Positions 1-9,819 of a stretch of DNA of 9,819 nucleotides are shown here, piece by piece (positions within the stretch are counted from its first letter, which is position 1; the number at the start of each line of letters is the position of its first letter). A program made the position numbers and the translations under genes. Origin of the DNA: a virus (Duplodnaviria > Heunggongvirae > Uroviricota > Caudoviricetes); IMG/VR virus record IMGVR_UViG_2645727743_000024; one strand, written 5' to 3'. A model generated the notes under the pieces. The model searched no databases. It was not told the origin of the DNA and worked only from the letters and a program-made list of their open reading frames with translations.

Positions 1-168
1 GAAATGCTGAAAATTAATCCACAAATTACCGAAATGGTAGCTAAATACGCTGGGTGTTCTGTAGAAGAAGTAGAACGATGTGTTGAAAAATATTTTTCTC
101 CTTCTTCTCCGTCTACACCTTCCATTAATGAATTAATCAAATTAAAAGCTAAGGAGATTACTAAATGA
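1..168 (+). CDS. 3' end of an upstream gene (partial, start lies left of the window); probably a head-morphogenesis gene by position, function not determinable
   Basis: Frame 1 is open from base 1 for 55 codons and ends at TGA 166-168, overlapping the next ATG (165-167) in an ATGA arrangement typical of translationally coupled phage head genes. No start is visible, so it is absent from the ORF track. Confidence 0.35.
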   Translation, partial: EMLKINPQITEMVAKYAGCSVEEVERCVEKYFSPSSPSTPSINELIKLKAKEITK

Positions 169-527
169 TTATTGATTTAGACACTCTGTTTCCAGTTCGA
201 AAGACTTTCACAGATATTGTAAGTTATTGTACTGATCCGTTTGCCTCTGTAGAAAACAAGGTTTTTGCTTCTCTTCCTGCTGATGTTGAGTGCGGCGACT
301 TGATCACCAGCACGGGCGCTAAATATGAATCAGGAGATGATATCTATGTTGTTATGAGTGAATTTGTAACGGCTGGAGCAAACAAGCCTGTAGATGTTTT
401 ACGTAGCAATGCTGGCCTTGTGTGCATCAAAGCTGATGCGCTGAATGCTGTAAGTGAAGCAGCAAAAACAGCATTAATTAAAAAAGGCTTCCAGCTTGAA
501 GGCTTTAATACGGTTTTCACTTCTTAA
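165..527 (+). CDS. hypothetical phage head protein (possible decoration or head accessory protein by position, directly upstream of the major capsid gene)
   Basis: 120-aa ORF with AAGGAG at 151-156, 8 nt before ATG 165; stop TAA 525-527 lies 18 nt before the capsid gene. Position mirrors lambda D before E, but I see no convincing sequence similarity to gpD. Confidence 0.6.
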   Translation: MIIDLDTLFPVRKTFTDIVSYCTDPFASVENKVFASLPADVECGDLITSTGAKYESGDDIYVVMSEFVTAGANKPVDVLRSNAGLVCIKADALNAVSEAAKTALIKKGFQLEGFNTVFTS

Positions 528-545
528 TAAAAGGAATAATAATAA

Positions 546-1574
546 ATGATTCTAGGTAATGATTACGTTGATTTAGCTCCTCTGTTCTCTGCGCATAGCA
601 CTAGAAACTATCTGCTTTCTACTCTCGACTTCACTGATTCTGTAGGGGTTACATCTCATAAAGTAGCTGTTTCCCAGCTTGTCGAAAGCAACGAATCTCT
701 CTTTAACAAAGAGACAAGCCGTTTTAGTTCTGAACACAACGTTACTAAGCGAGAACAAGGTAAAGAATGGCTGATTGAAATCCCGTATTTTCTTCGTGAA
801 GATGTGATCCGTCCTTCTGATGTTCAAGGCAAACGTAAGCCAGGCACTGATTTTCAGGAAACACTCACTGATATCTATGCGGAATATATCGCTAAACACA
901 ATGTTGCATTCCAGCGTACTAAAGAGAGCGTGTTGGCGGCTTCTTTGTTCTCTGGCAAAACTTACACGCCTAAAACTGATGATGTGTTAATTGAGTGGGG
1001 CAAGCTGTTTAATGTGACACCTATGAAAGCCACTGTGACCGCTTCCAGCACTGACACCACGAAGATTTTTAAAGAATTTGATCAGATTGCTACGAATATT
1101 ATCGACAGAGCACAAAGCCAGGCGTCAGCGGTAGAGCGTATTGTTGTTTTCTGTAAGCCGGAAGCCTTCTCTGCAATTCGATTCTCTGCGGGTATGGCAA
1201 ACGCATTCCAGTATGTAAGCCCACTGGAAGAGGGGAACGTTGTGTATCAGCGTCGTGACCTGCTGCCAGGGGTGACAGCGTTCACTATTCCAGGAACTAA
1301 CATTGATGTTGTTAAACTGGTAGATCCGCTACACCTTGCACATATGACCGCTGACGCTGTAGCTGTGCCTAAATTCTCTAAGGGTAGCGGAATTTATACC
1401 AATATCTTCGGGGCTGCTTCCAGCACCTTTGAACTGATTAATGCCGCTCCTGCTGAGGTGTACAGCTATAGCTATGAATCTTCTCGTGGTGATGCTGTTA
1501 ACGTTGTTACAGAGAATAGCCAGATGGTTGTAAACCACGGCGTTGGCTTCTCAGTTCAAATCACTGTAAAATAA
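546..1574 (+). CDS. major capsid protein, lambda gpE-like (Phage_cap_E family)
   Basis: 342 aa, close to lambda gpE (341 aa). Recalled gpE-like stretches: APLF, HKVAVSQL (gpE EKVYLSQI) and IVVFCKPEAFSAIRF (gpE IIVFDPKGWALFRSF). AAGGA at 531-535 precedes the ATG; a strong terminator follows. Confidence 0.8.
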   Translation: MILGNDYVDLAPLFSAHSTRNYLLSTLDFTDSVGVTSHKVAVSQLVESNESLFNKETSRFSSEHNVTKREQGKEWLIEIPYFLREDVIRPSDVQGKRKPGTDFQETLTDIYAEYIAKHNVAFQRTKESVLAASLFSGKTYTPKTDDVLIEWGKLFNVTPMKATVTASSTDTTKIFKEFDQIATNIIDRAQSQASAVERIVVFCKPEAFSAIRFSAGMANAFQYVSPLEEGNVVYQRRDLLPGVTAFTIPGTNIDVVKLVDPLHLAHMTADAVAVPKFSKGSGIYTNIFGAASSTFELINAAPAEVYSYSYESSRGDAVNVVTENSQMVVNHGVGFSVQITVK

Positions 1575-1592
1575 TATTTTAACGTGTAATAG

Positions 1593-1627
1593 AGGCGTGG
1601 CGTGTATTCACGCTTCGCCTTTTTTTA
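1593..1627 (+). terminator. rho-independent terminator downstream of the major capsid gene
   Basis: Stem 1593-1604 pairs with 1609-1620 (12 positions, one T-T mismatch and one G-T wobble), 4-nt loop TATT, then TTTTTTT at 1621-1627. Confidence 0.6.
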
Positions 1628-1659: not shown

Positions 1660-1863
1660 ATGGAAGTGATTTTGAAATCAAAAAATGGTGTACACGTACA
1701 TTTAGATGCTAATGATTCTAGAGGCTTGTTAAATCTGAAATATCTATGTTCTCTTTTAGATGTTCCCTATGAAGGAGTAAAAGCCCGTATGTTCAGACTA
1801 AACGAGAGTATTGATCAGGCTCTACACCATTTCTTAAGCAAAGAAGGTGGTAAAAATGATTAA
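1660..1863 (+). CDS. hypothetical small protein (67 aa), first gene of a three-gene cassette
   Basis: ATG 1660 preceded by GAGAGGTGA (1644-1652); stop 1861-1863 lies 14 nt before the next gene's ATG. No recognisable motif. Confidence 0.5.
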   Translation: MEVILKSKNGVHVHLDANDSRGLLNLKYLCSLLDVPYEGVKARMFRLNESIDQALHHFLSKEGGKND

Positions 1864-1877
1864 TAAGGGGATTTTAA

Positions 1878-3707
1878 ATGTTAGAAATTAACACTTCTAA
1901 AATTAAGAACACAGTAACATTTAGTGTAGATAAAGACAGCTTGAAAAAAGCGAAAGACTCTATTACAGGCTTAAAGGAATTCGCAGAAAATATCAAGCCA
2001 GCTAAATTGAGATTTGATAGTGTCACTAAAGGCTATAAGAAAGCACAAAGTGAAGTAGACAAGATTGCTCAACAGAAAGCTAAAACAGAAAAACAGAATC
2101 AAAGAGCACAAGCTGCCGCAGCAAGAGCACAGGCAAGGCAACAGCAACAAATAGCAGCACGTAAGGAGAAAGCTGAACTAAAGCTTTTAGACGTTGGATC
2201 AAGCATTAGTGCAATGCACCGCCTCTCTGTAGCGGAACAATATAAAGCTATTGCACAGGCTAGAGAGATAGCCAAACAATATGAGCAAGGGGCTATCTCG
2301 CTTGCACGTATGAATAGCCAGATGAAACGCCTACAACAGCAACAACGTAAGATTAATGGCAATAGAAAAGCACAATTAGCCCCCGTTAAGGGAGGATCAG
2401 GGAATTCCGCCACTATGGGCGCTCTGTTATTTGGAGGCGCTACGGCTGCCGCTGGCGTGATGGCTATGAATAAAGCAAATGAATTCGTTACTAATAGTTT
2501 TGCCAATGCTGAGACACAAGGAGAATTAATCCAACGTGCAAGGCTTGGCGGTGTAGACGTTAACCAGATGTATAATATTACAGAATGGGCGTATAGAAAC
2601 GGCGTTGACTCTATGATGGGGGATCAAGGGGCTAGGAAATACCTGGATCAGATGAAAGATGTTAGGGAACGTGCCGCAAAATCCTATAGTGAAGCTGAAT
2701 TAGTGAAAGACAAGAAAACCGGAAAATCTGAATGGAAAGGCGGTGATAACGCTATTAATGAACTTCTAAACATTGGAGTTATTAACAAAAGCGACCTTAA
2801 AAAATTTGCTGATAATCCAGCCGGATTAATTTCTAAGGCTGTTAATGGAATGATGAAAAAAGGGTTTTCAGATTCTCAAATTGGACAACGTTTAGAAGAC
2901 CTGGGCGATGATTTGATGCTTACATCAAAATATTGGCAACGTTCCGTTAAAGATGTACAAGAAAGTATTAATCAGCAAAAAGCCTCTGGAAAATGGCTAA
3001 CAGAAACACAGCAAGACTCTATTGTTAAATTCAGAGAACTAAACAGACAGCTTTCACAGCTTTCTGATGCAAGACAAGTAGCATTCGTAGACGGCTTTAT
3101 GAAATCTCTTGATCCAAAAGTAACGGAAGAGTTTATGAAAAACCTTTCTAATCTCACTCCGTATTTTACGAAGCTAGGGGAAGCTGTAGGAAGTCTCTTT
3201 GAGGCTATTATGAAGATTGTAAACTGGTTTAATCGTAATGATGATAAGACAGATGCTATTCAGAAAAATTTAGGTGATGCACCGCCTTTGAGTAATGAAG
3301 GGATGAAACAGCATCTTTCTAATCTCGTTCCTGACCAATATAAAGGCGCTGGCACTGCAACAACTACACCTGATAATAGTCATTCTCTATTTAATACGAT
3401 TAAGGGATTGCTTTTCGATGATAATTCTTCTGTGTCAGATGTAAAAATGTCAGTCAGCGAAGCACCGATAACCAATCTCAAACAGGGTGCTTTAAATAAT
3501 CTTGCAATGACAACTCCGGCTTATAATTTATCTCCTGTATTCAATCTGAATCCTACATTTGAAGTGGTAACGGAGGTTCCGCTTACTATTAATTCTGACA
3601 CATCCAGATTAAGCGATTATGTGGATTTTACAGCGAGAGCAAGTCGGGATAGCTTCTTGAAATCATTAACATTAACCAGCTTATCAGGACAATCTAACGG
3701 CGGGTAA
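1878..3707 (+). CDS. hypothetical 609-aa protein with Gln/Ala-rich coiled-coil region and a Gly/Ala-rich hydrophobic segment; possibly a virion internal, ejection or tape-measure-like protein
   Basis: RBS AAGGGG 1865-1870, 7 nt before ATG 1878. Residues about 55-160 are Q/A/K/R-rich heptad-like (AQQKAKTEKQNQRAQAAAARAQARQQQQIAARKEKAELK); residues about 170-197 GGSGNSATMGALLFGGATAAAGVMAM look membrane-spanning; the C-terminal third is S/T/N-rich. Function is inferred from architecture only. Confidence 0.75.
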   Translation: MLEINTSKIKNTVTFSVDKDSLKKAKDSITGLKEFAENIKPAKLRFDSVTKGYKKAQSEVDKIAQQKAKTEKQNQRAQAAAARAQARQQQQIAARKEKAELKLLDVGSSISAMHRLSVAEQYKAIAQAREIAKQYEQGAISLARMNSQMKRLQQQQRKINGNRKAQLAPVKGGSGNSATMGALLFGGATAAAGVMAMNKANEFVTNSFANAETQGELIQRARLGGVDVNQMYNITEWAYRNGVDSMMGDQGARKYLDQMKDVRERAAKSYSEAELVKDKKTGKSEWKGGDNAINELLNIGVINKSDLKKFADNPAGLISKAVNGMMKKGFSDSQIGQRLEDLGDDLMLTSKYWQRSVKDVQESINQQKASGKWLTETQQDSIVKFRELNRQLSQLSDARQVAFVDGFMKSLDPKVTEEFMKNLSNLTPYFTKLGEAVGSLFEAIMKIVNWFNRNDDKTDAIQKNLGDAPPLSNEGMKQHLSNLVPDQYKGAGTATTTPDNSHSLFNTIKGLLFDDNSSVSDVKMSVSEAPITNLKQGALNNLAMTTPAYNLSPVFNLNPTFEVVTEVPLTINSDTSRLSDYVDFTARASRDSFLKSLTLTSLSGQSNGG

Positions 3708-3741: not shown

Positions 3742-4455
3742 ATGGCGACCGCCGGGATTTTAACCATACGTGCAGCAAATACTCCAGAACAACACGTTCA
3801 GGCTGTTTACAAAGCAGAACAAGATATAAACTCTACAAAAAACGAAAATAGCAAAGCTAATAAAACAAAAGGAGAGAATGGTTTTGCTATTGTTACCAGT
3901 GGGCTGGCTTCTTCTGGCAATGATGTTTATGAAAATTATATGGCACTGGCTTTTGACAGTGTTGACGATGTGAACGTGAGACGTTCGGCAGATGTTACAA
4001 GCTACCCCGTAGAAAATGGTGCTACTGTGTCTGATCACGTTCAAATTAAAAACAATAAGTTTTCTCTTAAAGGAAGGATCACTGAAACACCGATTAAAAG
4101 CGATCCTGGCTTGTTAAAGAGTGCAGGGGTGAACGGGAACAGAAGATCATTAGCAATTGATTATCTGAATCAGATTATGGACAGTAGACAGCCTTTTCTT
4201 CTTGTTACAGAAAATAAAACTTTTGAGAACGTTGTTTTAACAGGCATCGAATACACAGAAGAGGCAAGCGAATCCCTGGTATTTGATCTTAGCTTTGAGC
4301 AGATCAGGCTCGTTTCGTATGGCACTGTAAACACTGTAGCTATCAAAACACAGCCATCTAAGAACATCGGGGCGAATATGAAAAAACGTGTTAACACTGA
4401 AAAATCAAGTAGTGAAGGTGAAGACACTATTACTCCTGCCTTTAAACAGGAATAG
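3742..4455 (+). CDS. hypothetical 237-aa protein, third gene of the cassette
   Basis: RBS AAGGA 3726-3730 before ATG 3742; the N-terminal about 60 aa are K/N/E-rich low complexity, the rest has alternating hydrophobic and polar stretches. No recognisable catalytic motif. Confidence 0.7.
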   Translation: MATAGILTIRAANTPEQHVQAVYKAEQDINSTKNENSKANKTKGENGFAIVTSGLASSGNDVYENYMALAFDSVDDVNVRRSADVTSYPVENGATVSDHVQIKNNKFSLKGRITETPIKSDPGLLKSAGVNGNRRSLAIDYLNQIMDSRQPFLLVTENKTFENVVLTGIEYTEEASESLVFDLSFEQIRLVSYGTVNTVAIKTQPSKNIGANMKKRVNTEKSSSEGEDTITPAFKQE

Positions 4456-4536: not shown

Positions 4537-5871
4537 CTATGGTGTTGTTTTACGCCTTAAATTTGATTTTTTATTGATTGATAAGCCTTTCTCTATTTCA
4601 GGGTAGCGTAGAAGCTCAATATATTTTTTAAGCTCTACTGGAGAAGCTGCATTCTTGCTATATGTGCGGAATGTCTCTGTATTGCCGCGTGTATGGCCCA
4701 GGAGAAGGGCGATCCTGTCTTCTGGAATTTGATTTCGATCAAGAAGCTGTGCTACTCCGTGTCTCAGAGAATGAAACACCTTCCTTTCTGTTCCCTTTTC
4801 CCCTAAAGCCTTTCGTTTAGCTCTTGTAAATCTCTGCGTGTGCCACGTGGAACGCTTACCATCAGCACGCTCTGTAATGCTGGCGTGATAGAACAAAAAG
4901 CCATTATGAGGCTTTTCACGCAGCGACAACACCAACGGAGTGATAAGGCTATGTACAGGCACAACACGTGCCGCAGCTTTCGTTTTTCCCTGTGTGATTT
5001 CAAAACACAGCACACCTTCGATCTCTTTCACATCGTCTATTGTGAGACTTGCTATCTCATTGATCCGCATACCTGTATATAAACCGATAAGACACAAAGC
5101 CATCATTTCTTTGTTTTCTGCTGAATTACCGGAAAATACTTGCAACACCTGCAATAGCTCTTTGTTAGAAAATGCCTCGTAGCTCTCTCTACTTTGTGCC
5201 ACATCAAGCCTATGCCCTCGCCAGGGGGAGAGCGCCCTTTCTGGCGCATCGTGGTAACGTGATGAAGCTAACTCCCATAGCTGGGCCATTGGGCTGATAT
5301 AATTTGCAATTGATTGTTGTGAAAGGGTTTTTTGCATGTGTTCTATCCAGCCTGTAACAGTGGTGCGGCTTACATCTTGCAATGCAATATCAGGCTTTTT
5401 ACGGTAGGAGAGAAACATCTCTACCGCTTTTCTTGCCTTAGCTAAAGTGGCTGGCTTCTTCTTCGTGCTGTTAATTGTCAGGTAGATTTCAAGAATTTTA
5501 AGCAATGACGGACACGAAGACGCTGTATCTTGCATTCTGGTAGCTGTTTTGGCGTATTTAGCCTTACTGCGTAACAGTTCCAGCGTGTTCTCTATTGTGC
5601 TGTTTACAGGAGCGACACTCTCCCGTAGACAATGGTATTCATCTGCAATCTGATCACGCTTTCTACGTGCAACACGAAGATTACTTGTGTGTAGACTTCT
5701 GACAAACGTCCTTTTTCCTTCAAAAAAGGGCTGCATATACACAGGCAGCGTGATCCTTAAATAGTAGTTACCGTAAGAATCACAGATTATGTATTGATTG
5801 GGCTTGTATCTCATAAACTCCCCGGCTAAAGTGTCGGAGCGTTTGTAATGTGAAAATTGATTGTAACGCAT
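4537..5871 (-). CDS. tyrosine recombinase / phage integrase
   Basis: 444-aa ORF with catalytic-domain motifs: Arg in TGMRINE, HSLRHG, LLGH and a C-terminal Tyr in RTYSK. ATG at 5871 has no Shine-Dalgarno; an in-frame ATG at 5814 (425 aa) has GGGGAG 3 nt upstream. The N-terminus does not resemble the P4-type arm-binding domain as I recall it. Confidence 0.85.
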   Translation of the reverse strand: MRYNQFSHYKRSDTLAGEFMRYKPNQYIICDSYGNYYLRITLPVYMQPFFEGKRTFVRSLHTSNLRVARRKRDQIADEYHCLRESVAPVNSTIENTLELLRSKAKYAKTATRMQDTASSCPSLLKILEIYLTINSTKKKPATLAKARKAVEMFLSYRKKPDIALQDVSRTTVTGWIEHMQKTLSQQSIANYISPMAQLWELASSRYHDAPERALSPWRGHRLDVAQSRESYEAFSNKELLQVLQVFSGNSAENKEMMALCLIGLYTGMRINEIASLTIDDVKEIEGVLCFEITQGKTKAAARVVPVHSLITPLVLSLREKPHNGFLFYHASITERADGKRSTWHTQRFTRAKRKALGEKGTERKVFHSLRHGVAQLLDRNQIPEDRIALLLGHTRGNTETFRTYSKNAASPVELKKYIELLRYPEIEKGLSINKKSNLRRKTTP

Positions 5872-5957: not shown

Positions 5958-5976
5958 ACTCCTATTATCGGCACCA
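5958..5976 (+). repeat. attachment-site core: 19-nt copy of the 3' end of tRNA-Thr (thrW type) without a tRNA body
   Basis: ACTCCTATTATCGGCACCA matches my recollection of the thrW 3' end (T-stem 3' half, acceptor 3' strand TATCGGC, discriminator A, CCA). Upstream sequence GTGTTTT does not continue the tRNA, and no GCCGATA 5' acceptor strand is present about 70 nt upstream. It lies between the integrase 5' end and the CP4-like module. Confidence 0.6.
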
Positions 5977-6255
5977 TTAAAATCAAATTGTTACGTAAGA
6001 TCTTATCATTCTCCCACCAAAAAATTATCTTAATGTAACAGCTGGTGTAAGTAAATTCTATCAACGAAGATCAATCTTATCTACTGACCAAAAAGGCCTG
6101 ATAGGGCTTCGCTCACTATACATCCTTGGCTGCAGGTTTAGTTGTACACCACTCCTAAATTTAATGTGTTGGCAATGTGTTCAATAAAGCTCGAACAAAT
6201 TAGCTCATTATGATCGGTTAATACTTCAACTTCTGGTTGCATGATTGTTTGTCCG

Positions 6256-6357: not shown

Positions 6358-7037
<680 letters not shown>

Positions 7038-7055
7038 TACAGTTCTCCACTATTG

Positions 7056-7277
7056 TCAGTTCAGGGTGATGCTCATCAGGCAGGTATAGGGCCCATTGCG
7101 GTCCTGGCGGCGTTCGGCGTATACCGCGAGGACTCCGGCGATATCCGGAACGTCCCTGCCGGTGTAATGACAGACGCTACCGTGCCACTGGTATTTGCCG
7201 GTGCAGTAGCGAAAGATTCGGGACTCAGGATGCTGGCGGTATATCGTCATTGCCCTGCGTTTACTGATAATTTTCAT
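7056..7277 (-). CDS. DUF987 family protein (YeeT/YkfH-like)
   Basis: 73 aa from ATG 7277 (MKIISKRRAMTIYRQHPESRIFRYCTGKYQWHG...), resembling recalled YeeT. GAGG lies 8 nt upstream. The track start at 7289 is a non-ATG (TTG) start overlapping the RadC-like stop. Confidence 0.7.
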   Translation of the reverse strand: MKIISKRRAMTIYRQHPESRIFRYCTGKYQWHGSVCHYTGRDVPDIAGVLAVYAERRQDRNGPYTCLMSITLN

Positions 7278-7285
7278 GTAATACC

Positions 7286-7762
7286 TCAAAGCAGACCGTG
7301 TTCTGCGAACGAATAGATTTGCCTGCCACCGACAATCAGATGGTCAGGGACACGGATATCCACCAGCTGAAGCACCTGAACCAGTCGCTGCGTGAGGGTT
7401 TTGTCGGCCTGGCTAGGTGTCGTCTCGCCGGAAGGATGGTTATGCGCGAGTATCACCGCCGCCGCGTTGAAGTGCAGAGCACGTTTGACCACCTCCCGGG
7501 GATGCACCTCGGTGCGGTTAATCGTGCCGGTGAAGAGCGTTTCATGGGCAATCAACTGATTCTGGTTGTCCAGATACAACACCCGGAACTCTTCCCGCTC
7601 AAGCGCGGCCATATGCAGTCGCAGCCATTCACGTACGGCGTGGGTAGAGGTGAAGGCTACGCCGGGCTCATGCAGGTGGCGGTCCAGAGCCCTGAGCGCC
7701 CGCTGAATGAGACGCCGGTCCTGTGGCGTCATCTCGCCGGGTAAAAAGGAAAGCTGTTTCAT
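7286..7762 (-). CDS. RadC-like JAB/JAMM-domain protein (YkfG/YeeS/YfjY family)
   Basis: 158 aa; HNHPSG motif (LAHNHPSGETTPS) and C-terminal DHLIVGGRQIYSFAEHGLL typical of the family; AGGAG precedes ATG 7762. Confidence 0.85.
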   Translation of the reverse strand: MKQLSFLPGEMTPQDRRLIQRALRALDRHLHEPGVAFTSTHAVREWLRLHMAALEREEFRVLYLDNQNQLIAHETLFTGTINRTEVHPREVVKRALHFNAAAVILAHNHPSGETTPSQADKTLTQRLVQVLQLVDIRVPDHLIVGGRQIYSFAEHGLL

Positions 7763-7777
7763 CTGTTGCTCCTTCGG

Positions 7778-8236
7778 TCAGTCGATAATACGCAGAATGG
7801 CGTGAGCCTCTGGATGTTGCATGGCATACTCCCGCAGGCGGTAATAGTGTGCGGTCATCGCGTCACATTCTGTACGGCAGGCATGGTGGCTATACGCAAT
7901 CAGGCAGACAGCAATACCTGCTGCTTCTGCACTCATTTGGGCATCGTTACCGTTCAGGCAGTTAAACAGACGCCATGTCTCATCGTTGTCAGGCTCGGGG
8001 GACATAAATGCGCCGCCATTGCTGAGGGTGTAGAACGACCAGATACCACCGCTGTAGCCCTCACAGAAGCGGTCCATCCAGGCGAAGATATGCGGCTCCA
8101 GGAGTAGCCACTGCGGGATAGCGCCAAAGTACTGTGGCCAGAAATCGATACGCTGTTCATCGGGGACCGGCGTGACGGTCAGTTCAAATTCGGGTTGGTT
8201 AGCGGGTGCGAGGTCGTGCTGCGTCTGTGTTATCAT
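7778..8236 (-). CDS. antirestriction protein, ArdB/KlcA family (YfjX/YafX-like)
   Basis: 152 aa from ATG 8236 (MITQTQHDLAPANQ...). The track ORF extends to 8449 but would overlap the upstream DUF905 gene; the internal ATG has GGAGA upstream and follows a terminator-like hairpin. Confidence 0.8.
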   Translation of the reverse strand: MITQTQHDLAPANQPEFELTVTPVPDEQRIDFWPQYFGAIPQWLLLEPHIFAWMDRFCEGYSGGIWSFYTLSNGGAFMSPEPDNDETWRLFNCLNGNDAQMSAEAAGIAVCLIAYSHHACRTECDAMTAHYYRLREYAMQHPEAHAILRIID

Positions 8237-8251
8237 GGGTATGTCTCCGTC

Positions 8252-8280
8252 AATAAAAACGCCAGCGGCGATGGCTGGCG
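8252..8280 (-). terminator. candidate rho-independent terminator between the DUF905 and antirestriction genes
   Basis: 7-bp stem CGCCAGC (8260-8266) with GCTGGCG (8274-8280), 7-nt loop; on the - strand followed by TTTTTATT (complement of 8252-8259). Confidence 0.45.
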
Positions 8281-8333
8281 TATGGGGATATAAAGTGTGT
8301 TCGGGGAGGTGAATGCGGGTAAATGCTTCGCGA

Positions 8334-8573
8334 TCAGCGGGTAGCCGTGTCTGTACGGATGCCTGAGGTGCGGATATAGCGGTTAAGACCTTCACCGGCA
8401 TCCGGCTCAAAGTTCCATGCCCGCCAGACCATCCGGCCTTCAGTATCACGAACCACCAGACGGAAGTGACTGCCCTGGTCGTCTTCGAGTGTGATATTGC
8501 TGTACGTGGTAGTGACCGCTTGCGCTTGTCTCCGGGTGAAAGGCCCCGGTGGCAGCAACACGGATTGGGTCAT
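8334..8573 (-). CDS. DUF905 family protein (YkfF-like)
   Basis: 79 aa from ATG 8573 ([66 protein letters not shown]...). AGGAG lies 7 nt upstream; the 150-aa track ORF is an N-terminal extension. Confidence 0.7.
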
Positions 8574-8588
8574 TTTCGGGCTCCTGAT

Positions 8589-8623
8589 AAAAGAAAACCC
8601 CGGCAGCCTGCTAGCTGTCGGGG
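8589..8623 (-). terminator. candidate rho-independent terminator downstream of the secreted-protein gene
   Basis: 9-bp stem CCCCGGCAG (8598-8606) with CTGTCGGGG (8615-8623), including one G-T wobble; 8-nt loop; on the - strand followed by TTTTCTTTT, then the DUF905 RBS. Confidence 0.45.
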
Positions 8624-8649
8624 TGGATTTGCTGGGGAAGATGCTACTA

Positions 8650-9117
8650 TCAGTCGTTGCTGCAGTCTCCGGGAGTGGACAGAACTTTCTCAGCGTTCTT
8701 CCGGTCCGCAGTGAAGGTCCCTGCTTTGTGGTCATTGACGTAGACGTCGAACTGCCCGGCCTCAGAGATATTGCTGATGAAGTCAAACCAGGCGTTATCG
8801 CCGTTACGCCAGCCCAGGCTGGACGGAATAATGTACTGCTGGTGATCCATCACTACGGTGATAGTAGTGTCGTCATCGTGCGAACTGACCATCTTGTCAT
8901 CGGCAAGGGTAAGAAAGACTGAATGCTGATAGAAACCATTCTGGTCCGGGTTCCCTGTGCAGTTGATGGTAAACGTCTTTCCGCTGGCTTCGGTCACGCT
9001 GTATTCCGTATTGCCCTGACCGTAACCCTGCTGCCAGAACCCCGGGATAGCAGAGGCATTAAAGCTCGCGAGCAGTACACCCGCCAGCATAAACCGACTT
9101 AGTGAAAGTATTGTCAT
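8650..9117 (-). CDS. secreted protein with N-terminal signal peptide (YkfB/YfjT-like)
   Basis: 155 aa; [23 protein letters not shown] looks like a Sec signal peptide with AxA cleavage site; AGGAGA lies about 6 nt before ATG 9117. Confidence 0.75.
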
Positions 9118-9139
9118 TCTTGTCTCCTTTGTCGTTGTT

Positions 9140-9583
9140 TTATTCCTGATTGTCAGGGTTTGAGGGTATCAGCAGTCGCCCCATCAGTTTGCCGTCATGG
9201 GCGTACTCAAAGTATTTTTCTTTGGTATACGGGTCCGTCACCTCCTGGTATTCCAGTTTGATGTTATCGGCAATACACAGCGCATTCATCAGTGGCTGGA
9301 CGGTTTTTTCCTGCATATCCACGAGGTAGTAGTAACTGCCATCCTCGCAGCCATCGGGCGACTGGCGGGTACGTAAAACCTGCAAGGTGGGACCGGATAA
9401 GTAGTCAACCTGTGACCATTCTTCGCTGACATCATCCTGGTGGCTGACCACATCACTGAAACGCGGTGGGGTGAGGTCCTTAAATTTACTGATGGCCTTC
9501 AGGTCATCACTTCTGTCATCGCATGCGATGAGAAACAGAGTGGTGGCAACCAGCGCCAGCAGAGGCAGTGTTTTACGTTTCAT
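9140..9583 (-). CDS. lipoprotein (YafY/YfjS-like), predicted inner-membrane retained
   Basis: 147 aa; signal peptide plus lipobox LIAC followed by Asp at +2 (Lol avoidance signal). Its ATG (9581-9583) overlaps the upstream gene's TAA stop (TAATG). Confidence 0.8.
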   Translation of the reverse strand: MKRKTLPLLALVATTLFLIACDDRSDDLKAISKFKDLTPPRFSDVVSHQDDVSEEWSQVDYLSGPTLQVLRTRQSPDGCEDGSYYYLVDMQEKTVQPLMNALCIADNIKLEYQEVTDPYTKEKYFEYAHDGKLMGRLLIPSNPDNQE

Positions 9584-9819
9584 TATTTTTTTCCTGAAAT
9601 CAGACGAACCACTTTGGCAAAGACATAAATGCCCACGAAAATACCCACCGGCACGCCGACGAACGGTGTCAGCGCGACACTGGCAGCACCGGCTGCGCCA
9701 CCTCCCGTCAGCAGTGCGGCAACAGTGGCAAGGGTCAGGGCCGCGAGACTGTCGGACACCCCGGTTTTGTTCAGAATGATGACGATGACAACAATGGCGA
9801 TAATGGCAATAACGGGCAT
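9583..9819 (-). CDS. small hydrophobic membrane protein; its ATG coincides with the window edge, so it may be N-terminally truncated
   Basis: 78 aa with two hydrophobic, Gly/Ala-rich predicted transmembrane segments; stop overlaps the start of the lipoprotein gene, suggesting translational coupling. Confidence 0.5.
   Translation of the reverse strand: MPVIAIIAIVVIVIILNKTGVSDSLAALTLATVAALLTGGGAAGAASVALTPFVGVPVGIFVGIYVFAKVVRLISGKK

Follow-up and report, generated by a model that had tools for sequence, protein, structure and literature searches.

Genes and features at the locus

We examined a stretch of 9,819 nucleotides (nt) from the IMG/VR virus record IMGVR_UViG_2645727743_000024 (Caudoviricetes), referred to as the window, which denotes the whole stretch analyzed and is numbered from its first letter. 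The open reading frame (ORF) at 1878-3707, encoding a protein of 609 amino acids (aa), was followed up in detail. By homology, this ORF is the full-length tape-measure protein (TMP) of the contractile-tail type found in phi92 and phAPEC8 (Stephanstirmvirinae), and it was found to belong to an integrated element of 12-13.5 kilobases (kb) at the tRNA gene thrW, not to a phage. The IMG/VR matches are prophage calls from isolate genomes and are uninformative on encapsidation. The TMP gene and its parts were as follows, with selection expressed as the ratio of non-synonymous to synonymous substitution rates (dN/dS) and hydrophobicity as the Kyte-Doolittle mean over 19 residues (KD19).

1878-3707, forward strand: TMP gene of the phi92 gp134 / phAPEC8 type, 609 aa from ATG to stop, dN/dS 0.10
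1878-2000, forward strand: TMP N-terminal conserved domain, aa 1-41, with N11 and D18 near-invariant across the family
2013-2378, forward strand: Q/A/K-rich long helical region, aa 46-167, helices in the AlphaFold2 model; site of most of the length difference from phage TMPs
2403-2477, forward strand: Gly/Ala-rich hydrophobic segment, aa 176-200, KD19 maximum 1.48, low AlphaFold2 confidence
2490-3062, forward strand: helical domain in the middle of the TMP (aa ~205-395), where conservation across the family is highest
3609-3692, forward strand: C-terminal helix, aa 578-605, aligning with the baseplate-resolved part of phi92 gp134 (residues 631-656)

Identification of the 609-aa protein as a phi92-type tape measure

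The PHROG 16051 profile, annotated as 'tail length tape measure protein', matched aa 120-609 (E=1.8e-53), and a PDB sequence search matched aa 1-67 and 147-608 to chain V of entry 21vq (Phi92_gp134; E=1.5e-37). The 651-aa TMP of phage phiWec188 was aligned over aa 1-607 (BLASTP; E=3e-58), residues 554-608 were aligned to residues 602-657 of phi92 gp134 (HMMER), and the top BFVD fold matches of the TMP model were tape-measure proteins (Foldseek). The resemblance to tape measures proposed in a preliminary description of this DNA was confirmed by these four lines of matches. It was noted that Pfam, NCBIfam, and PADLOC gave no match to the TMP, which was identified only by PHROGs and the PDB sequence search. 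The Foldseek comparison of the model with the PDB returned no significant match and no enzyme, and no unrelated enzyme family was matched in Pfam.

Among GenBank phages, 134 records were matched at 31-37% identity (tblastn), almost all of them Stephanstirmvirinae myoviruses of about 145-150 kb from the Justusliebigvirus/phi92 and Phapecoctavirus groups. A search of 1.84 billion representative proteins yielded only 74 relatives of the TMP, with the full-length ones spanning 578-715 aa, and a length of 609 aa is therefore ordinary for the family. The earlier remark that the protein is short for a siphovirus tape measure applied the wrong yardstick to a TMP of the myovirus type. As a protein, it is a fresh member of a known TMP family.

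The island TMP was homologous end to end to phi92 gp134 and to the TMPs of Phapecoctavirus and Justusliebigvirus, sharing with them the N-terminal region of about 40 aa, the long helices, the Gly/Ala segment, a central domain of about 190 aa, the low-complexity region, and the C-terminal helix, all in the same order. In the phages and in the island alike, a tube initiator gene of the gp135 type lies directly downstream. Several differences from the phage proteins were also found. Overall identity was just 26-37%. The island TMP is 40-50 aa shorter, the difference lying before the central domain: a Q/A/K-rich helix is found there in the island, and a Pro/Gly-rich segment together with an R/E-rich helix in the phages. 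The phage gene is preceded by the chaperone pair gp132/gp133 (Phage_TAC_15 and gp133-like), whereas the island gene is not, and the island copy sits on a chromosomal island.

Residues 2-23 were identical to phi92 gp134 at 21 of 22 positions, with residue 1 encoded by ATG in the island and by TTG in phi92. Over the first 41 codons, 30 specify the residue found in phi92, and the first 60 nt were 90% identical. The last 25 residues were about 68% identical to phiWec188 (hand count), and the middle of the protein was about 25-30% identical to the phage TMPs. These alignments point to the docking ends of the TMP as its best-kept parts, with a diverged middle. In the cryo-EM structure of phi92, gp134 is a trimeric TMP with residues 631-656 resolved in the baseplate, gp135 is the hexameric tube initiator, and the tail comprises 24 tube rings (PMC13450770).

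A different reading, also raised in the preliminary description, is that the 609-aa protein is an ejection or pilot protein, that is, an internal virion protein of a short-tailed phage and not a tape measure. All that favors this reading, which we regard as extremely improbable, is the overall appearance of the protein, with its long helix, hydrophobic segment, and disordered C-terminal part. It was rejected on the full-length homology to the TMP of a myovirus whose virion has been solved; a tube initiator gene also lies next downstream, and no ejection or internal virion protein was matched in the Pfam, PHROG, PDB fold, or BFVD searches.

Composition, predicted structure, and length of the tape measure

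The three compositional regions described earlier for the ORF, namely a Q/A-rich region, a Gly/Ala hydrophobic segment, and an S/T/N-rich C-terminus, were all recovered. Residues 55-165 (nt ~2040-2372) contained 20% A, 18% Q, 12% K, and 9% R; residues 166-210 contained 22% A and 16% G; and residues 451-609 contained 12% S, 11% L, 10% N, and 10% T. Hydrophobicity peaked in the 19-mer TMGALLFGGATAAAGVMAM (aa 179-197), whose Kyte-Doolittle mean of 1.48 is slightly below the customary transmembrane cut-off of 1.6.

The AlphaFold2 model was built from an alignment of 28 family members and had a mean predicted local distance difference test score (pLDDT) of 66. Helices were modeled at aa 46-111, 118-136, and 142-167 (pLDDT 78-97) and a helical domain at aa ~205-395 (pLDDT 88-97). 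Low confidence was assigned to aa 171-204, including the hydrophobic segment, and to most of the last third of the protein, which ends in a helix at aa 578-605. In the central domain, residues G242, D257, K260, D261, K280, G288, G289, P314, and E340 were invariant across the family. Of the coiled coil expected from the earlier description, only the long helix was supported: long helices were modeled, and a crude periodicity test of aa 46-111 detected the 3.6-residue periodicity of an amphipathic helix, but the 3.5-residue heptad periodicity was not significant in the same test. These results support a long amphipathic helix there.

The 12-mer CAACAGCAACAA was found twice, at 2139-2150 and 2334-2345, with none expected from shuffled sequences. 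This agrees with the repeat reported previously, except that the positions given then (2141-2152 and 2331-2342) were off by 2-3 nt. Both copies code for QQQQ, at aa 88-91 and aa 153-156, and Tandem Repeats Finder detected no array around them. The suggestion that the Q/A repeats allow length variation was rejected when the region was compared in the 120 closest homologues (96-98% identity). These were 608-612 aa long, with indels at aa 166, 171, 272-283, and 516 only, and none at the QQQQ-coding sites.

Differences between island and phage TMPs were assessed from a tree and alignment of 28 full-length family members, in which the phage TMPs formed one clade. Before the central domain, the island TMPs had 235-267 aa with 0-5 prolines and the phage TMPs 275-303 aa with 7-19 prolines, so that the N-terminal helical part was 30-60 residues shorter throughout the island proteins. 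The distance from the invariant G242 to G434 was 179-192 aa in all 28 members, and a hydrophobic peak was present at the equivalent position in 28 of 28 (KD19 0.78-1.85).

An alpha helix rises 1.5 Å per residue. At this rise, 659 aa would reach about 99 nm, in agreement with a tail of 24 rings at about 4 nm each. A chimeric tail built on the 609-aa TMP is predicted to be about 5-8 nm shorter than the tail of the helper, equivalent to one or two of the 24 rings, and calibration by analogy with the Vibrio PLE satellites would put the shortening at about 5 nm.

A mobile element integrated at thrW

The structural genes and the right end of the element lie in the window, and the following features were located around the TMP gene.

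1-168, forward strand: 3' end of a small conserved gene (ORF 4-168 in the window, 70 aa in the complete element), truncated by the window start
165-527, forward strand: p120, a conserved protein of 119-126 aa, always directly upstream of the island capsid gene
546-1574, forward strand: major capsid protein with an HK97-type fold, Phage_cap_E family (PF03864, E=9e-16; PHROG 29 'major head protein')
1592-1625, forward strand: terminator-like hairpin and T-run, a 9-base-pair (bp) stem with 5 G-C pairs followed by GCCTTTTTTT (consensus scan)
1660-1863, forward strand: p67, 67 aa here and 60-76 aa in other islands, immediately 5' of the TMP gene in almost all islands examined
3742-4455, forward strand: tube initiator (Dit-like baseplate protein), phi92 gp135 homologue (PF21821 Dit_like, E=3e-29)
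4537-5871, reverse strand: tyrosine integrase with DUF6538, SAM-like, and catalytic domains (PF00589, E=1.4e-17; PF20172; PF13102)
5958-5977, forward strand: attR core, 20 nt repeating the 3' end of the tRNA-Thr gene thrW (exact match; 0 expected by chance)

As the preliminary description had pointed out, no major tail or chaperone genes precede the TMP gene; only the capsid gene (546-1574) and small ORFs such as the 67-aa ORF were found upstream. This absence of neighboring tail genes became the interesting part of the finding.

In a complete E. coli genome carrying the element (locus L001), the region was located at the thrW hotspot, adjoining a CP4-6 module, and the same 20-mer was found in thrW itself and at the left and right ends of the element. 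In loci L006, L030, L033, L034, and L037, the element was also flanked by the 20-nt thrW repeats, spaced 12.0-13.5 kb apart. From left to right, the element comprises a small resolvase, 5-6 iterons, a Rep-like HTH_36 protein, small ORFs, and then the structural genes in the order p120, capsid protein, p67, TMP, tube initiator, and integrase. The Rep-like protein (231 aa; L001 15757-16452, outside the window) matched HTH_36 and replication-initiator PHROGs. The iterons TACCCCTATCAA occur in 5-6 copies at 18-24 bp spacing (L001 13983-14123, outside the window), within a 2-kb non-coding stretch near the HTH_36 gene. The iteron stretch is probably the replication origin of the element.

No sheath, tube, or chaperone gene was found in the entire element, and Pfam and PHROG scans of its ORFs detected no portal, terminase, or protease domains. 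The G+C content of the island (39-41%) was close to that of phi92 (38%) and phiWec188 (43%); that of the adjacent CP4-6 module was 54.5%. The 70-aa ORF, which has no family match in Pfam or PHROG, is complete at L001 17956-18168 and is the first gene of the island structural operon. A conserved near-consensus sigma-70 promoter, ATATCTTGACA-N17-TAATATAA, was noted within L001 17623-17955 and in the equivalent gaps of L003 and L006. It lies left of the window start and upstream of the structural operon, and is followed by a leader of 250-700 nt with terminator-like hairpins. This arrangement suggests regulated read-through of the late operon, by antitermination or RNA control.

Proteins encoded beside the tape measure

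The island capsid protein was 22% identical to those of phiWec188 and phi92 and 35-62% identical to those of other islands (dN/dS 0.17). The tube initiator was much closer to its phage counterparts, with 58-61% identity to Justusliebigvirus and Phapecoctavirus proteins (dN/dS 0.01), a match to PDB 21vq chain N (Phi92_gp135; E=2e-78), and a match to the Pam3 tube initiator gp17 (E=1.4e-6). In one island, the tube initiator was 74% identical to phi92 gp135 and only 53% identical to the E. coli island copy, which suggests, from these identities, that this gene has been exchanged repeatedly with phages. Homologues of the integrase adjoin the TMP gene in other islands.

The protein p120 was kept in 7 islands at 25-59% identity (dN/dS 0.08), with further islands recovered by tblastn. 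Compared with the phage decoration proteins (phi92 gp123 group), it was co-linear over 91 columns at a weak, non-significant level (hhalign; probability 2.4%, E 0.02). It was also noted that p120 occupies the position of the phage decoration or cement protein and that both proteins end in 'FTS'. As a weak hint, p120 may be a decoration or cement protein.

Homologues of p67 were located at L003 9813-10001, L005 9810-9998, L006 9811-10008, L007 5313-5495, L009 1862-2050, and L010 9771-10001, and the p67 alignment comprised 7 island copies. By tblastn, p67 was matched in 17 of the 24 bacterial loci scanned, many of them short or cut contigs, and its dN against L001 was 0. A single-sequence AlphaFold2 model (pLDDT 75) contained two strands and two helices and had no fold match in the PDB; Pfam and PHROG gave no assignment, with only the L003 homologue producing sub-threshold Pfam helix-turn-helix matches. 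Compared with the gp133-like protein at the same position in the phages, p67 was not homologous (hhalign probability 0.2%). It could be an island-specific partner of the TMP or a regulator.

Distribution, conservation, and selection across the island family

Distant family islands were collected from the genomic context of the most diverged TMP relatives and from a scan of species-representative genomes. The single TMP protein as query gave no match in the species-representative genomes, and the central-domain alignment as query recovered further copies there, in seven genera other than Escherichia. Relatives with the same gene order, at 25-40% TMP identity, were found in Escherichia, Citrobacter, Enterobacter, Kluyvera, Scandinavium, Kosakonia, Buttiauxella, and Pseudenterobacter; the order is p120, capsid protein, p67, TMP, and integrase, with or without a Dit-like gene after the TMP. 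Among the TMP relatives at 26-39% identity, P0122, P0123, P0126, P0127, P0128, and P0131 lie in islands arranged this way, and P0145 and P0148 do so in part. Across 24 bacterial loci, p120 and the capsid gene were usually upstream of the TMP gene and the integrase downstream (tblastn). Local tblastn searches for the phi92-like sheath, tube, chaperone, terminator, gp136, hub, and sheath initiator found none of them in any bacterial locus.

By contrast, the TMP relative P0133 is encoded in a 140-kb phage contig with a complete virion set, ordered as portal, protease, scaffold, decoration, capsid, adaptor, terminator, sheath, tube, chaperone, and a 79-aa protein, followed by TMP, Dit_like, gp136-like, hub, spike, and sheath initiator. 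The islands form a family of mobile elements that have a replication module of their own and carry a small, fixed complement of virion genes.

The TMP gene was present in 486 of 5426 complete E. coli genomes (~9%) and was always chromosomal. Close-homologue clusters of the TMP held thousands of member sequences, and all 120 listed representatives were intact. Between the window and the 96%-identical E. coli copy (L001), dN/dS was 0.00-0.17 over six genes, with no internal stops.

These data bear on the possibility that the island is a cryptic remnant, the degraded leftover of a prophage with a TMP gene that has no current function. Such an origin would be in line with its location in the thrW hotspot beside the CP4-6 cryptic prophage module, with the absence of the majority of virion genes, and with the RefSeq label of the TMP gene, which was 'hypothetical protein' in every one of the E. 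coli genomes. We nevertheless consider it very improbable. All six genes are under purifying selection by the values above, random decay is an unlikely source of the same short ordered gene set at 25-40% identity in many genera, and the att repeats are clean and the element brings an origin and a Rep of its own. In addition, the phages with related TMPs, the Stephanstirmvirinae of about 145-150 kb, are virulent and would not be expected to leave prophage remnants.

Comparison with known phage satellites

The element has the generic features of a phage satellite: an integrase with att repeats, its own Rep with a putative origin, and an incomplete virion and packaging set. The closest precedent is the Vibrio PLE satellites of phage ICP1, whose chimeric tails were described by Mathur et al., Nature 2026 (PMC12987554; preprint PMC11838301). 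The chaperone, TMP, and baseplate hub of the V. cholerae PLEs are 19-41% identical to their ICP1 counterparts, and in PLE virions the satellite TMP and hub take the place of those of ICP1, giving chimeric tails. The PLE11 TMP is 95 aa shorter than that of ICP1 and the tails are about 10 nm shorter, and deletion of the PLE tmp gene lowers transduction by 96-99.9% (PMC11838301 / PMC12987554).

Like the PLEs, the island is a small integrative element that lacks most tail genes and encodes its own TMP and one inner baseplate protein. In both, the similarity to a virulent myovirus is distant (19-41% for the PLEs; 26-37% for the island TMP and 58-61% for its tube initiator), and the satellite TMP is shorter than the phage TMP. 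The host family and the putative helper differ, and the likeness is one of gene content, with no sequence relationship claimed. The PLEs have a tail chaperone and the hub BhuB, whereas the island has a tube initiator and no detectable chaperone; the PLE scaffold TcaP remodels the ICP1 capsid protein, whereas the island encodes a capsid protein of its own. Function is experimental in the PLEs and inferred in the island.

Two further groups of satellites were compared. The cf-PICIs resemble the island in being integrative elements of Enterobacteriaceae that carry an integrase and a replication module and encode an HK97-type capsid protein themselves; some members are reported to have a TMP gene. 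However, they encode a capsid protein, protease, portal, head-tail connectors, and both terminase subunits, whereas Pfam and PHROG scans of the island yielded only a capsid protein and possibly a decoration protein. The EPIP satellites of Mycolicibacterium (bioRxiv 2025, PMC12822802), compared by description only, carry a capsid protein and a TMP and no tail tube, as the island does, and their particles have altered tail length and smaller capsids (PMC12822802). They differ in their actinobacterial host, siphovirus prophage helper, and serine integrase, and in adding a small terminase subunit, adaptor, stopper, and scaffold.

No P4-like satellite genes (Psu, Sid, Delta, or the alpha primase-helicase) were detected in Pfam and PHROG scans of the island ORFs, and the scaffold-based capsid remodeling of P4, SaPI, and PLE is unlike the island's proposed use of its own capsid protein. 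The element matches neither the cf-PICIs nor the P4-like satellites and, with Escherichia and other Enterobacteriaceae as hosts, was not classed with the PLEs. Reports of satellite-encoded TMPs, in PLEs, some cf-PICIs, and EPIPs, are all recent, and the element was undescribed in the literature searched, including by RefSeq protein accessions.

A proposed satellite mechanism and its main alternative

The analysis itself provides the homology and domain layout of the TMP, the gene context and boundaries of the element, its conservation, and the purifying selection on its genes; from these, we infer the identity of the helper, expression on infection, incorporation into tails, the effect on tail length, and transfer of the island. 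On balance, we lean slightly towards the interpretation that the island is satellite-like and carries a complete, functional TMP that forms chimeric tails with a helper myovirus, as the PLEs do.

Under this proposal, a virulent phi92- or phAPEC8-like myovirus would infect a cell carrying the island, and the island TMP and tube initiator would be made and would replace gp134 and gp135 of the helper on the helper hub. Helper tube and sheath would then polymerize around the island TMP to give a chimeric, shorter tail, which would be joined to particles with a shell of the island's own capsid protein. The yield of the helper would probably be reduced by the diverted parts. That the island capsid protein is only 22% identical to that of the phage suggests that the head shell, too, is island-made.

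A broader version of the proposal is plausible at slightly less than an even chance. It holds that the islands form an undescribed, widespread family of Enterobacteriaceae satellites that parasitize large virulent myoviruses of the phi92/phAPEC8 group with a minimal kit of their own, and that p67 is a new factor selecting or chaperoning the TMP in place of gp132/gp133. The kit would comprise the capsid protein, p120, p67, the shortened TMP, and often the tube initiator. The head shell and tail core would be satellite-made, and the portal, packaging motor, tube, sheath, baseplate wedges, and fibers would come from the helper.

Several observations weigh against the satellite interpretation. With a capsid identity of 22% to the putative helper, co-assembly with the helper portal, scaffold, and protease is uncertain, and neither a packaging gene nor a pac or cos site was identified in the element. 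No tail assembly chaperone was detected in the island, whereas PLEs carry one, and p67 was not detectably related to phage chaperones or to gp133. The parts list is also non-uniform: the Dit-like gene is missing from some islands (L005, L006, L009, and L010), and no capsid-protein homologue was found within the available sequence of others, such as L012 and L013. Finally, sequence similarity is the sole basis on which the helper was chosen.

The main rival to the satellite interpretation, which it does not exclude, is interference by decoy. Here the island TMP, the tube initiator, and perhaps the capsid protein would act mainly as dominant-negative 'poison' subunits that enter or block the baseplate and tail assembly of the invader, protecting the bacterial population, and no transferable particles would be formed. 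Conserved helper-docking ends and a diverged middle of the TMP would suit such a role, and related islands were found to carry defense-type cargo, namely SduA_C (Shedu), Dam, Imm_superinfect, and Rap1a. Blocking of tail assembly is moreover a known strategy, seen in the Tai systems (PMC11364771) and in Rta of PLE11. On the other hand, the integrase, att sites, Rep and iterons, and capsid protein point to horizontal spread and not to a fixed defense gene, a full-length TMP with purifying selection over its entire length exceeds what a blocker needs, and no PADLOC family matched any island protein. We judge a purely defensive role to be unlikely. Decoy activity would also be compatible with the satellite interpretation, as PLEs both defend and spread.

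The phi92- and phAPEC8-related Stephanstirmvirinae are broad-host-range coliphages that are frequently isolated for therapy. If the island hijacks or sabotages their tail assembly, it would be a common, unrecognized resistance determinant against these phages. If the satellite interpretation is true, the island could provide a gene-transfer route driven by virulent phages, and it would be a second, independent case of chimeric tails in a tractable host, such tails having been demonstrated so far only for the Vibrio PLEs. A satellite encoding just a capsid protein, and not a scaffold or full head module, would then be a new twist. For the study of length control in contractile tails, island TMPs paired with phage TMPs also offer a natural series in which one helical segment is the main difference.

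Additional features of the window and of related islands

The terminator-like hairpin at 1592-1625 sits right after the capsid gene and before p67 and the TMP gene. From its position, this putative terminator may lower the expression of the tail genes relative to that of the capsid protein.

In the E. coli element, the end away from the main integrase carries a resolvase or invertase of 179 aa. At the same end, many relatives were found to carry a second, very short tyrosine recombinase of 185-186 aa, located at L003 1882-2442, L005 1929-2489, L006 2574-3134, L007 11105-11662, and L010 1704-2264. The L007 locus is a circular contig of 14,065 bp (30-nt terminal overlap, k-1 of the assembler) that encodes p126, the capsid protein, p60, TMP, Dit_like, ParA, and a 185-aa tyrosine recombinase. 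It may represent an episomal member of the family or an excised form.

Past the att core, the window (6358-9819) contains a CP4-6-type cryptic-prophage module with a G+C content of 54.5%, unrelated to the island. Its genes comprise the YkfI/YafW toxin-antitoxin pair, DUF987, a JAB/RadC-like gene, the antirestriction gene YafX, YkfB, the YafY lipoprotein, and YpjK. The island and this module occupy the thrW site in tandem. Tandem or nearby occupancy by two islands was also found: a 35-kb contig of Citrobacter sp. NCU1 (NZ_NRDO01000039.1) carries two different TMP islands, L019 and L023.

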